From the UHGV virus genome UHGV-1828728: 39,345 bases of DNA; one strand, written 5' to 3'. The DNA comes from a virus. Below, one piece after another: positions 13,682 to 17,772 of the stretch. The number at the start of each line of letters is the position of its first letter. Position 1 is the stretch's first letter. Below the pieces are notes generated by a model. The model did not search any database. It saw only the letters and a list, made by a program, of their open reading frames with translations, and was not told the DNA's origin. The translations under genes and the position numbers were made by a program.

Positions 13682-14323
13682 TTATAAATAGTTTTCTTTG
13701 CCGGTAAGTAAGCCTTGAGGAACTCGCTTGTCGGCTAGACATTGGGTTCCGCGAATTATGTTAATCAGAGGGCTTAGTAACGATGGTTCCTGGCGGGCCT
13801 CAACTTCTCCAGCCATTGCCCTGATGTAGTCGGCGCTTGCAACGTTGTTATATTCCGTTGCGAAGCAGCATAACAACGACAGAACGTGCTCTGTCGTTAT
13901 TTCGCTCCAGTTGATGTTGAAAAATTCATCGCCTTTTTTGTCGTGTTCGGAATCGAAGATGCTTTGGTGGAGGATGTATTTGCCGGATTCTTTGCGCGGT
14001 AACTTGATCGCTTTCTGGCGTTCCAGCTCCTTGTAAATCTGCATTGCTTCAATTAGTACCGGCCTGCCGTTCATGAAGGGATCGCGCAACCTTACACGCT
14101 GGCCAACTCGACCCGTAATAAAGCTGTTTTCCTCTTCCACCAGCACGATAAAACCCTTTTCCTCTTTTTCTCGCAATTCGCGCAGCAGCTGGAGTTCCAT
14201 ATCGCGGCGGCGTTCAGGGTAGCTGGTCCGCTCAGCCATTATCAGCTCATTGTTGATCCATGCGGCAGTCATTGACGCCGGTTTGCCGACGCTCATCGAA
14301 ACAACGCATATTTTCTTATCCAT
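13682..14323 (-). CDS. mat: Mat-like protein (P1 backbone gene adjacent to ref)
   Basis: 213-aa ORF from ATG 14323 (AGGGG SD; the track start 14350 is GTG); normal GC; sits next to ref as mat does in P1. Name by synteny only. Confidence 0.5.
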   Translation of the reverse strand: MDKKICVVSMSVGKPASMTAAWINNELIMAERTSYPERRRDMELQLLRELREKEEKGFIVLVEEENSFITGRVGQRVRLRDPFMNGRPVLIEAMQIYKELERQKAIKLPRKESGKYILHQSIFDSEHDKKGDEFFNINWSEITTEHVLSLLCCFATEYNNVASADYIRAMAGEVEARQEPSLLSPLINIIRGTQCLADKRVPQGLLTGKENYL

Positions 14324-14511
14324 AGCGCCCCTACAAAAAAGAAAAGCCACCAGCGGCGGCTTAGCAATACAACTGAAGGTAGCGCCCGGTACTCAGACTG
14401 TGCCGTCCATGGAATATTTGAAAAGGGATCCATCCGTACCGGGCATGTGATGATTCTGACTGAAGTCACTTGTCAGTTGTCAATTATTTCAGATTAAAAA
14501 TAATATATTTA

Positions 14512-15072
14512 TTAGTGCATGCTGTTTGCCATCTCATAGGCGTCAGCCAGCAACTCCATCTCTGACTTGTTCAGCAAGGTGAATTCTTTCTTGCCTCCAA
14601 CCACACCATCGGCATGAACAGGGACCAGCCAGGGGTATTTTTCTCTTACTTCAGCCGGTGCTGCATGCTGGTGGTGCCATCTACAAAGTGGCAATTGCTT
14701 TTTGTGACAACCAGGCGCGGTACGACCGGAGATATGGTGCAGAGACACCTCTTCAGATATTACTCCATGCATATAGCAGGCAATGCAGGGGAGAGCGCCA
14801 AGAGCATTGGCTATGCGCCGCTCCTCCGCCGTCGGTGTTCGTCCCTTCAAGCCACGAGATTTTATTTTTACCGCGCTTTTCCGCGTTTTGCTGGCTGGTG
14901 GGCGCTCTTTCTGTTTAGCGATACGGCGGTCGATAGTATTCCGCATTTTCTGATATTGAGATTCTCGCCAGGCCGGATCAGCCAACTTCTCCCGTTGCCG
15001 AGCGATCGCTCGTTCTCTGGCTGCCTTCTGCCACTTACGGTGCTGTTCAATTTTTTGTTCGATTGTTTTCAT
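14512..15072 (-). CDS. ref: Ref (recombination enhancement function, HNH-type endonuclease)
   Basis: 186-aa product starting MKTIEQKIEQHRKWQ..., Cys/His-rich C-terminal half; matches P1 Ref from memory. The track ORF extends upstream to 15177 but Ref begins at the internal ATG. Confidence 0.85.
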   Translation of the reverse strand: MKTIEQKIEQHRKWQKAARERAIARQREKLADPAWRESQYQKMRNTIDRRIAKQKERPPASKTRKSAVKIKSRGLKGRTPTAEERRIANALGALPCIACYMHGVISEEVSLHHISGRTAPGCHKKQLPLCRWHHQHAAPAEVREKYPWLVPVHADGVVGGKKEFTLLNKSEMELLADAYEMANSMH

Positions 15073-15077
15073 ATGGC

Positions 15078-15103
15078 AAAAAAAAGGCGGCCTGATGGCC
15101 GCC
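15078..15103 (-). terminator. terminator-like hairpin in the ref leader (possible attenuator)
   Basis: On the minus strand, stem GGCGGCC/GGCCGCC with loop ATCA followed by T8, ending 5 nt before the ref ATG. Confidence 0.4.
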
Positions 15104-15163
15104 AATGATGTCAAGGAGTTAAGTAATGGCAACGTCTTCGTAGTTGACAAAAACTGCGGCTCA

Positions 15164-15187
15164 ATTATAGCAATCAATTAGAGCAAT
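15164..15187 (-). promoter_or_regulatory. ref promoter with overlapping C1 operator
   Basis: Minus strand ATTGCTCTAATTGATTGC TATAAT: operator core (15171-15187) immediately upstream of a perfect -10 TATAAT (15164-15169). Confidence 0.5.
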
Positions 15188-15247
15188 GGTAGAGATTTTG
15201 TTTATCGCGAATCACATTTTTTCACTTCAGTACCTGTGTGCTATACT

Positions 15248-15321
15248 CCTTCTTGATTGATTGGATGCGGAATACAAACCCGCTCTTTTGTGCAGCCTGG
15301 CTCCTTGCCAGGCTTTTTTTT
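15248..15321 (+). ncRNA. candidate small RNA (promoter plus intrinsic terminator, no ORF)
   Basis: Extended -10 TGcTATACT (15239-15247), about 45 nt containing GATTGATTGG, then hairpin AGCCTGGC-TCCTT-GCCAGGCT (15294-15314) and T8. No coding potential on + strand. Existence as an RNA is inference. Confidence 0.25.
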
Positions 15322-15631
15322 ATTTCATCATGGAAGCTGTTAATGCTTTGGACCTTGCTGAACTGATTGAGAGGGCTTTGTCAACGTGCCCCAAAAATTC
15401 GCCAAACTCAGACATCACTTTAGCAAAACCGCGCCGTGCTTCTTCCTCGGTGGCATTCATCACGAAATGTTCAGCACTACGCATACTTCTGACAGGGAAC
15501 GCAACGGATATTGAGTCAATATCAGGCATTCTATCGCTCAGCTTTACAGTGACAATGACGGCTGGCGACTGAATATTAGTGCTCACTGACAGCACTACAT
15601 ATTTTCCGTCGATGTTGAAATTCTTTCTCAT
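15320..15631 (-). CDS. cra: Cra-like protein (cre-associated)
   Basis: 103-aa ORF between cre and ref with ATG and GGTGA SD; C1 operator-like site just upstream. Name by synteny. Confidence 0.6.
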   Translation of the reverse strand: MRKNFNIDGKYVVLSVSTNIQSPAVIVTVKLSDRMPDIDSISVAFPVRSMRSAEHFVMNATEEEARRGFAKVMSEFGEFLGHVDKALSISSARSKALTASMMK

Positions 15632-17208: not shown

Positions 17209-17225
17209 AGAATTATTAGAGCAAT
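17209..17225 (-). promoter_or_regulatory. C1 operator (immC)
   Basis: AGAATTATTAGAGCAAT, 15/17 to consensus in reverse orientation. Confidence 0.5.
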
Positions 17226-17285
17226 AAATTTTGAGAGAAAAATCCCACTCCACCAGCCAAAAACTGGATTGTTTTTCATAGTTGT

Positions 17286-17314
17286 TTGACAATTGCTCTA
17301 ATAAATTATAGTTT
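17286..17314 (+). promoter_or_regulatory. immC promoter with embedded C1 operator
   Basis: TTGACA (17286-17291) followed by ATTGCTCTAATAAATTA (17292-17308, 16/17 to consensus) overlapping a TATAGT/TAGTTT -10; reads toward coi-c1. Confidence 0.55.
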
Positions 17315-17546
17315 TGCCGCCGTTTCGTAATACGACTTTGGATTCACTATTTAATGTGTCTTCAGCGTTGTAGAGCGGCTCAGAAGGAAATGAGCAAACA
17401 GGGAAACCTTATACAACGGCATTACAGCTATGCATTGCTCATCTTACACACAGCGCAATGTTGTTAGATTACCCCAGCATGGATCATGGGTGAAACAGTA
17501 GGTCAGAGCTTCAGGCTCTGTGTTGTCAATACAGTGAGGCATAATT

Positions 17547-17756
17547 ATGGCTTTCATTCCACCAACCATCGACGACGTTAGACATTGCTCTAACGCTTTA
17601 TCTGTAGACCCCGCCGAAACCGACGCTGCCCGCGCCATTGCTGAACACTACTCAAAGATATCCAATCAGGAGTACCGCATCACCCAAGACGACCTGGATG
17701 ATCTCACTGACACAATCGAATATCTCATGGCCACTAACCAGCCAGACTCACAATAA
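17547..17756 (+). CDS. coi: Coi (C1 inactivator)
   Basis: 69-aa ORF immediately upstream of c1 with ATG and GTGAGG SD; size and position match P1 coi. Confidence 0.8.
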   Translation: MAFIPPTIDDVRHCSNALSVDPAETDAARAIAEHYSKISNQEYRITQDDLDDLTDTIEYLMATNQPDSQ

Positions 17757-17772
17757 ATGCACTAATAAATCT
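17756..17772 (+). promoter_or_regulatory. degenerate C1 operator-like site between coi and c1
   Basis: AATGCACTAATAAATCT, 14/17 to consensus. Confidence 0.35.

Follow-up and report, generated by a model that had tools for sequence, protein, structure and literature searches.

Leader attenuators are classically represented by the trp and pyrBI leaders of Escherichia coli and by the leaders that BglG/SacY-type RNA-binding antiterminators act upon. We compared with these systems the control region of the gene ref in the UHGV virus genome UHGV-1828728, a stretch of 39,345 nucleotides (nt) referred to below as the window. Like the classical attenuators, this region places a promoter, a short leader and a GC hairpin with a U-tract before the first gene. 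It differs from them in that the ref leader encodes no peptide and shows no recognisable RNA motif for a protein to bind, in that its candidate antiterminator helices are not shared between clades, and in that its U-tract lies only 5 nt from a start codon that is not preceded by a Shine-Dalgarno (SD) sequence. For bacteriophage P1, the title of a 1988 report on the ref region contains the words "attenuator-antiterminator control" (Windle, Laufer and Hays 1988, J Bacteriol 170:4881). To go by that title, the control region is already known and was described for P1 in 1988, and no new biology is added here. What we add is the conservation of the RNA structure across Ref lineages of about 65% identity, its constant place downstream of a repressor-controlled promoter, and its survival in plasmids that have lost ref; with this comparative support, the attenuator hypothesis, which is old and seems not to have been taken up again, becomes easy to test. 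We estimate a probability of roughly 70% that the ref leader is a P1 regulatory leader with a terminator that damps ref expression.

The nuclease Ref depends on RecA; it makes ciprofloxacin more lethal to P1 lysogens and has found use as a programmable nuclease, and what limits its expression is therefore of practical interest. In P1, inactivation of the C1 repressor induces ref, and Ref reduces lysogenization by a factor of about 40 (Ronayne et al. 2016, PMC4713147). The same study found, by electrophoretic mobility shift assay and chromatin immunoprecipitation, that H-NS binds the ref 5' regulatory region at CGATAAA. The corresponding elements of the window, all on the minus strand and listed in the direction of ref transcription, are the following:

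15201..15207, minus strand: H-NS motif CGATAAA, assigned from the motif and from the binding reported for the P1 ref 5' region (PMC4713147)
15171..15187, minus strand: C1 operator Oref, ATTGCTCTAATTGATTG, the same bases as the site annotated in AF234172
15164..15192, minus strand: promoter P2ref, with a weak -35 (15192-15187) and the -10 TATAAT (15169-15164), the AF234172 annotation being carried over by alignment
15104..15157, minus strand: leader RNA upstream of the terminator; the block GUCAACUAC is conserved in it, and a CUCC-type motif stands shortly before the hairpin
15105..15132, minus strand: predicted promoter P1ref, with -35 TTGCCA (15132-15127), -10 CATCAT (15110-15105) and a TG before the -10
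15086..15103, minus strand: terminator hairpin GGCGGCC-ATCA-GGCCGCC, with seven G-C pairs, a tetraloop and -15.0 kcal/mol
15078..15085, minus strand: T8 tract (U8 in the RNA), the putative release element of an intrinsic terminator, from the sequence and the scan
15073..15077, minus strand: spacer GCCAT, without an SD sequence
14512..15072, minus strand: ref coding sequence (186 amino acids, RecA-dependent HNH nuclease), assigned from PF16786 and identity to P1 Ref

The original prediction had read this leader as an operator core, TATAAT, about 60 nt, GGCGGCC-ATCA-GGCCGCC, T8, GCCAT and then the ATG, and every element was found at its minus-strand coordinates, with exactly 60 nt between the -10 and the hairpin (15163-15104). 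The terminator-like character that it had given to the hairpin held as well: an independent terminator consensus scan recovered the same structure (seven pairs, all G-C, a loop of four, then TTTTTTTTGC), and when the full leader was folded the 5' arm paired with the 3' arm at a probability above 0.99. The T8 follows the stem directly, and does so on the ref-sense strand only. Chance origin was rejected: with both strands taken together, the 39-kb window holds only seven terminator motifs under stricter criteria, whereas shuffled sequences average 0.07. A terminator acting on the plus strand was rejected too, as that strand has A8 ahead of the hairpin and no T's after it.

Upstream of the hairpin, Oref agrees with the C1 consensus ATTGCTCTAATAAATTT at 14 of 17 positions and overlaps the -35 and the spacer of P2ref, which is the C1-controlled operator-promoter layout of P1. 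The predicted transcription start of P2ref lies near 15157. AF234172, the curated P1 record, carries the labels P2ref, "monovalent C1 controlled operator Oref" and "predicted sigma 70 promoter P1ref"; the hairpin itself is unannotated there. Sites resembling the C1 consensus with at most three mismatches number 11 in the window, against 0.15 expected (positions 757, 4602, 15171, 17209, 17292, 17756, 22030, 31641, 33733, 33782 and 37406). Three of them cluster within 17209-17772, and two stand near each other at 33733-33798. We also observed a tandem 13-nt direct repeat at 15161-15186 on the minus strand (TTGCTCTAATTGA / TTGCTATAATTGA), which doubles the operator core and whose second copy provides the TATAAT of the -10.

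The locus around the leader is that of P1. A megablast search against phage records matched P1 at 96.5% identity over 1301 bases, across cre, c8 and ref. The minus-strand open reading frames (ORFs) around the hairpin encode a 343-amino-acid Cre-type recombinase and products of 103 and 186 amino acids, and the gene order cre-c8-ref-mat is the P1 order. In a profile search the 186-amino-acid ORF matched PF16786 (RecA_dep_nuc) with E=1e-50 and 170.6 bits, for a cutoff of 26.9, and the nearest database entries to its product are Ref family proteins that are 95-97% identical (about 96% for P1 Ref). Because of the identity to P1, the PF16786 match and the Ref-named closest relatives, we assign the window on sequence grounds to a P1-type phage or phage-plasmid and the 186-amino-acid gene to ref, which agrees with the HNH endonuclease Ref that had been predicted downstream of the leader. 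The comparison with the P1 ref leader, proposed along with that prediction, was run on AF234172. The operator, the -10 and the hairpin stem are the same, and four differences separate the two sequences between the c8 stop and the ATG: two just upstream of the operator, one in the leader (A/C) and one in the loop, which reads ATCA in the window and ATTA in P1. The arrangement, which had been called unusual, is thus the same as the published P1 arrangement.

Scanning the interval between the promoters and the ref ATG, we found no second terminator-like structure. According to AF234172, the deposit M23246 spans P1 1808-2063 and ends at the final base of the hairpin 3' arm; we take this deposit to be that of the 1988 paper. 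As the ref-leader hairpin is the only structure of its kind in this interval, we consider it almost certain that the "attenuator" of the 1988 title refers to it.

To follow the leader among close relatives, we collected 47 distinct P1-clade leaders from in front of the conserved start of Ref, with the start codon as the sole anchor. All 47 have the hairpin, and all 47 have an unchanged P2ref -10. Just two of the 14 stem columns vary, both from C to T beside the T-run and both leaving a G-U pair, whereas three of the four loop columns vary (ATCA, ATTA and TAAA), as do 25 of the 54 columns of the leader upstream of the hairpin. The T-run is 7-10 nt long in ref-carrying relatives, and the spacer after it reads GCCAT, GACCAT or ACCTT.

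More distant lineages keep the same order of elements with other stem sequences. In Salmonella and Klebsiella phage-plasmids whose Ref is 64-67% identical (the ~65% clade below), an operator-like site near the C1 consensus, of the ATTGCTCTAAT type and with the core of Oref conserved, lies over TATAAT or TATTAT, and a leader of about 50-60 nt leads to the hairpin GACGGTC-TTCG/TACG-G(A/G)CCGTC and T7-8 (TTTTTATT in L145), with an ATG or GTG start 13 nt after the T-run. Pantoea alvi (63% identity) has a near-consensus C1 operator, about 45 nt, GCCGCC-TCCG-GGCGGC and T7, and its ATG lies about 95 nt further on. Taken together, these leaders share a C1-type operator over a -10, a leader of about 45-60 nt, a GC stem of 6-7 base pairs, a tetraloop and T7-8; their stems differ from that of the window (GACGGTC/GACCGTC in Salmonella and Klebsiella, GCCGCC/GGCGGC in Pantoea), and some of these relatives have GTG starts or a weak GGG upstream. 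In every lineage with the hairpin, Pantoea alvi included, the terminator stands downstream of the operator-promoter.

MAFFT placed the P1-type and ~65%-clade hairpins in register unaided, and we measured covariation over nine distinct hairpin variants aligned in register. Standard pairs make up 98.4% of the cells. In three of the seven pairs both partners have been exchanged, the replacements being A-U for G-C, U-A for C-G (with U-G as the intermediate state) and, in Pantoea, C-G for G-C. The covariation score was not attained by any shuffle, and the pairing collapsed in every slid register. As the G-U pairs and the T-run are present on the ref-sense strand only, we rejected the possibility of a protein-binding DNA palindrome, and the pattern of changes indicates that the hairpin is a selected RNA structure on that strand. 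The attenuation of ref in addition to C1 repression that the original prediction had put forward is supported by the P1 annotation, by the conserved sense-strand leader hairpin with its compensatory and G-U changes, and by the wording of the 1988 title, and its C1 component also by the induction of ref upon C1 inactivation in P1 (PMC4713147).

We infer the transcription start, the termination and its efficiency, and the damping purpose from the sequence, and the mechanism that we favour can be outlined as follows. P2ref, a sigma-70 promoter overlapped by Oref, would be shut in lysogens and open upon C1 inactivation. RNA polymerase would then make a leader of about 80 nt ending in a strong intrinsic terminator, with the U-tract 5 nt before the ref AUG. 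Most P2ref transcripts would end there, and a read-through minority would carry ref; transcripts from the weak internal promoter P1ref, begun within the stem, may carry it as well. The ref message would in turn be poorly translated, as it lacks an SD and starts in a weakly structured stretch rich in U and A. In this way ref, whose nuclease is harmful to the host and disturbs lysogeny, may be held down at several levels: by C1, by H-NS, by the terminator and by the missing SD.

The internal promoter bears on a different explanation, in which the hairpin is an insulator that blocks transcription from cre, c8 and P2ref while P1ref supplies the productive ref mRNA. The P1 record carries this promoter, and our promoter scan also found it, with the TG before its -10. 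This -10 ends at 15105, 2 nt short of the hairpin, and the predicted start (about 15098-15096) falls in the 5' arm or the loop; P1ref transcripts starting there could therefore not form the terminator and would escape termination. In addition, the ref-leader terminator is the first canonical minus-strand terminator after c8, because the hairpin that follows c8 has no U-run on the c8 strand. Against this, P1ref is weak (9/12) and only predicted, and its -10 is missing from the ~65% Ref clade, which retains the operator, the P2ref-type -10 and the terminator. If the hairpin were purely an insulator, one would expect it ahead of the C1-controlled promoter and not downstream of it, where it is invariably found, and the induction of ref by C1 inactivation argues that transcription from the C1-controlled promoter reaches ref. 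We consider the insulator unlikely, and P1ref a possible bypass route, not the main route.

The start codon of ref, at 15072-15070 on the minus strand, lies 5 nt past the U-tract. The best duplex with the anti-SD sequence in the 20 nt before it reaches -1.5 kcal/mol, a value that 66% of random 20-mers from the window equal or better, and the median for the long ORFs of the window is -5.3; the absence of an SD at ref that had been noted in the leader is thus borne out. The region from -13 to +15, comprising U8 and A-rich first codons, has a mean unpaired probability of 0.61. In the predicted fold of the read-through mRNA, U8 (15078-15085) pairs with AAAAAAU in ref codons 7-9 (about 15046-15053), a weak helix of A-U pairs only. 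The frame of ref is open back to a TTG at 15177; an N-terminally extended Ref, or a leader peptide in this frame, was rejected, as the frame is not conserved in relatives. Since the lengths of the T-run (7-10) and of the spacer (5-6) vary and shift the upstream frame, the ATG at 15072 is taken as the true start.

These features raise the question of a translational role, which the original prediction had offered beside attenuation, with the hairpin and U-tract serving as a ribosome standby site, an S1-binding platform or a stabiliser that offsets the missing SD. The weakly structured start region would suit such a role, and in the P1 and ~65% clades the hairpin always lies 13-21 nt from the start codon. 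In Pantoea alvi, however, a hairpin of homologous type with T7 lies about 95 nt from the ATG, and the plasmids that lack ref keep the hairpin without a downstream gene to translate. Moreover, a GC stem directly before 7-10 U is a specific signature of termination that a translational element would not need. We regard a translational function as highly unlikely.

A further explanation is that the terminator is regulated, so that an antiterminator, either an RNA helix or a phage or host protein, opens it at a certain stage or signal. The "antiterminator" in the 1988 title speaks for it. In the nascent RNA of the window, GUUGCCA (leader nt 25-31; 15133-15127) is predicted to pair with UGGCGGC, which comprises the 5' arm plus one base; the gain of this helix is -6.6 kcal/mol, a value equalled by 8% of shuffled leaders. 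The ~65% clade has another helix, ACUGUCA/UGACGGU, in four of five leaders, with shuffle fractions of 0.015-0.25. A terminator-like hairpin is also found before mat, the next gene, which would fit a shared antitermination regime. On the other hand, the alternative helices are unlike between the clades, surpass shuffles by a small margin at best and are lost in four of ten leaders (L057, L019, L068 and L144), where shuffles do equally well or better, and in every case the terminator fold is about 9 kcal/mol more stable than the alternative (-23.4 versus -14.0 in the window). The leader contains no leader-peptide ORF, with no ATG or GTG and with in-frame TTG readings that are interrupted by indels in relatives, and it belongs to no Rfam family at gathering thresholds; at permissive settings, Rfam returned small-RNA models around both terminator hairpins, far below gathering. 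We found no motif common to the ref and mat leaders. To our knowledge, no antiterminator protein of P1 is known. Regulated opening of the terminator therefore appears somewhat unlikely to us, and an RNA-only switch for ref read-through would be weakly supported by the modelled helices.

A blastn search of plasmids found the leader in about 700 plasmid records. Within a group of P1-like plasmids from E. coli and E. albertii, the similarity to the window ends at the end of the T-run, and ref is absent. These plasmids carry the operator, promoter, leader, hairpin, T6 and two further bases, followed by the stop codon of a convergent gene for an antirepressor with a KilAC domain. The junction is common to about 29 records, which are only about 85-87% identical to the query pO111_2. 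The copies of the module that we examined are:

L249, 900-1023, and L251-L254: ref-less copies of the module in E. coli and E. albertii plasmids

The stem is invariant in the five ref-less plasmids examined, and the loop reads TAAA, ATTA or GAAA; one member has a degraded -10, TACGAT. A Cronobacter ref-less plasmid (L250) breaks mid-leader and has no hairpin, which argues against strict selection on the RNA. As for the reason of this retention, the terminator may keep Pref transcription out of the convergent KilAC-domain gene, the RNA, about 80 nt long, may have a role itself, or the plasmids may share a deletion end point.

The second of these options corresponds to a reading of the promoter and terminator as a gene for a stand-alone RNA of about 80 nt, for example a base-pairing regulator, with ref as a by-product of read-through. 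The module kept without ref in about 29 records, with its invariant stem and variable loop, would agree with this, as would the GC hairpin with a U-tail, the usual 3' end of enterobacterial small RNAs, and the conservation of the GUCAACUAC and CUCC blocks. Yet shielding of the KilAC-domain gene or a shared deletion end point could explain the retention, and both the broken Cronobacter leader and the TACGAT -10 speak against a maintained RNA gene. The leader has no above-threshold Rfam match, no target was identified for the RNA, and the conservation of the leader is no higher than that of the flanking DNA. A small-RNA gene seems very unlikely to us in this form. A broader proposal, in which the C1 promoter, leader and terminator form a unit of their own that makes a lytic RNA of about 80 nt with a ref-independent role, and/or the ref and mat terminators are opened by an antitermination activity, appears quite unlikely.

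Several observations weigh against our proposal that the leader terminator damps ref. The covariation rests on few independent events, in two to three lineages. A metagenome contig whose Ref is 67% identical (L150) has an operator-like site and a -10 without the hairpin, and no such hairpin was found by scan in Ref homologues of at most 58% identity; Ref can thus do without the element. One of these hairpin-less groups, that of E. coli at 56% (L146-148), was checked for an SD and has an ordinary AAGAGG. The persistence of the module in ref-less plasmids shows that something other than the damping of ref can also keep it in place. The P2ref start is predicted, not mapped; a literature search for mapped starts or 3' ends of P1 transcripts gave nothing useful, and ref is unmentioned in the P1vir RNA-sequencing paper. 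If P1ref were the main promoter, the ref mRNA would not contain the hairpin. Lastly, the equation of the "attenuator" with the hairpin rests on the title of the 1988 report, on the lack of a rival structure in the leader and on the end point of M23246.

In the hairpin-less metagenome contig L150 (1-170), the operator-like site is ATTACTCTAATTTATAT, and a -10-like element lies about 20 nt from the ref ATG, so that a transcript starting from it would be nearly leaderless. In the window, a C/U-rich motif lies just 5' of the hairpin (15111-15121), which reads ACUCCUUGAC in the P1 clade; its counterpart in the ~65% clade (L142-L152) is CUCC(U/C)CUGAC or ACUCCCUGAC, and the motif resembles the anti-SD core CCUCC.

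Directly past the stop codon of the minus-strand gene c8, the window contains a canonical terminator on the plus strand, AGCCTGGCTCCTTGCCAGGCT followed by T8 (15294-15322). Read on the c8 strand, this hairpin comes after A8 and is not followed by a U-run, and it is invariant in the alignment of ref-less plasmids. The plus strand of the window offers no obvious source of transcription for this terminator; in the plasmids without ref, transcription leaving the convergent KilAC-domain gene would meet it as the first canonical terminator.

Finally, we looked at the start of mat. The ATG annotated for P1 mat corresponds to window position 14433, and a run of GGGG in the window, which is GGGGG in P1, puts it out of frame with the long mat ORF. 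Among 77 P1-like loci, this upstream ATG and a downstream one (14323 in the window) lie 109-112 nt apart, and in 43 of the loci the upstream one is out of frame. Because the upstream ATG is out of frame in the window and in these 43 loci, the real start of mat is probably the ATG at 14323, which is Met38 of the annotated P1 Mat, and the P1 annotation would be off. GGGG(G) stands before this ATG, and at a distance of 11 nt upstream lies the terminator-like hairpin AAGCCGCC-GCT-GGTGGCTT followed by TTCTTTTTT (14335-14362, minus strand), so that with this start mat would have a leader terminator like that of ref.

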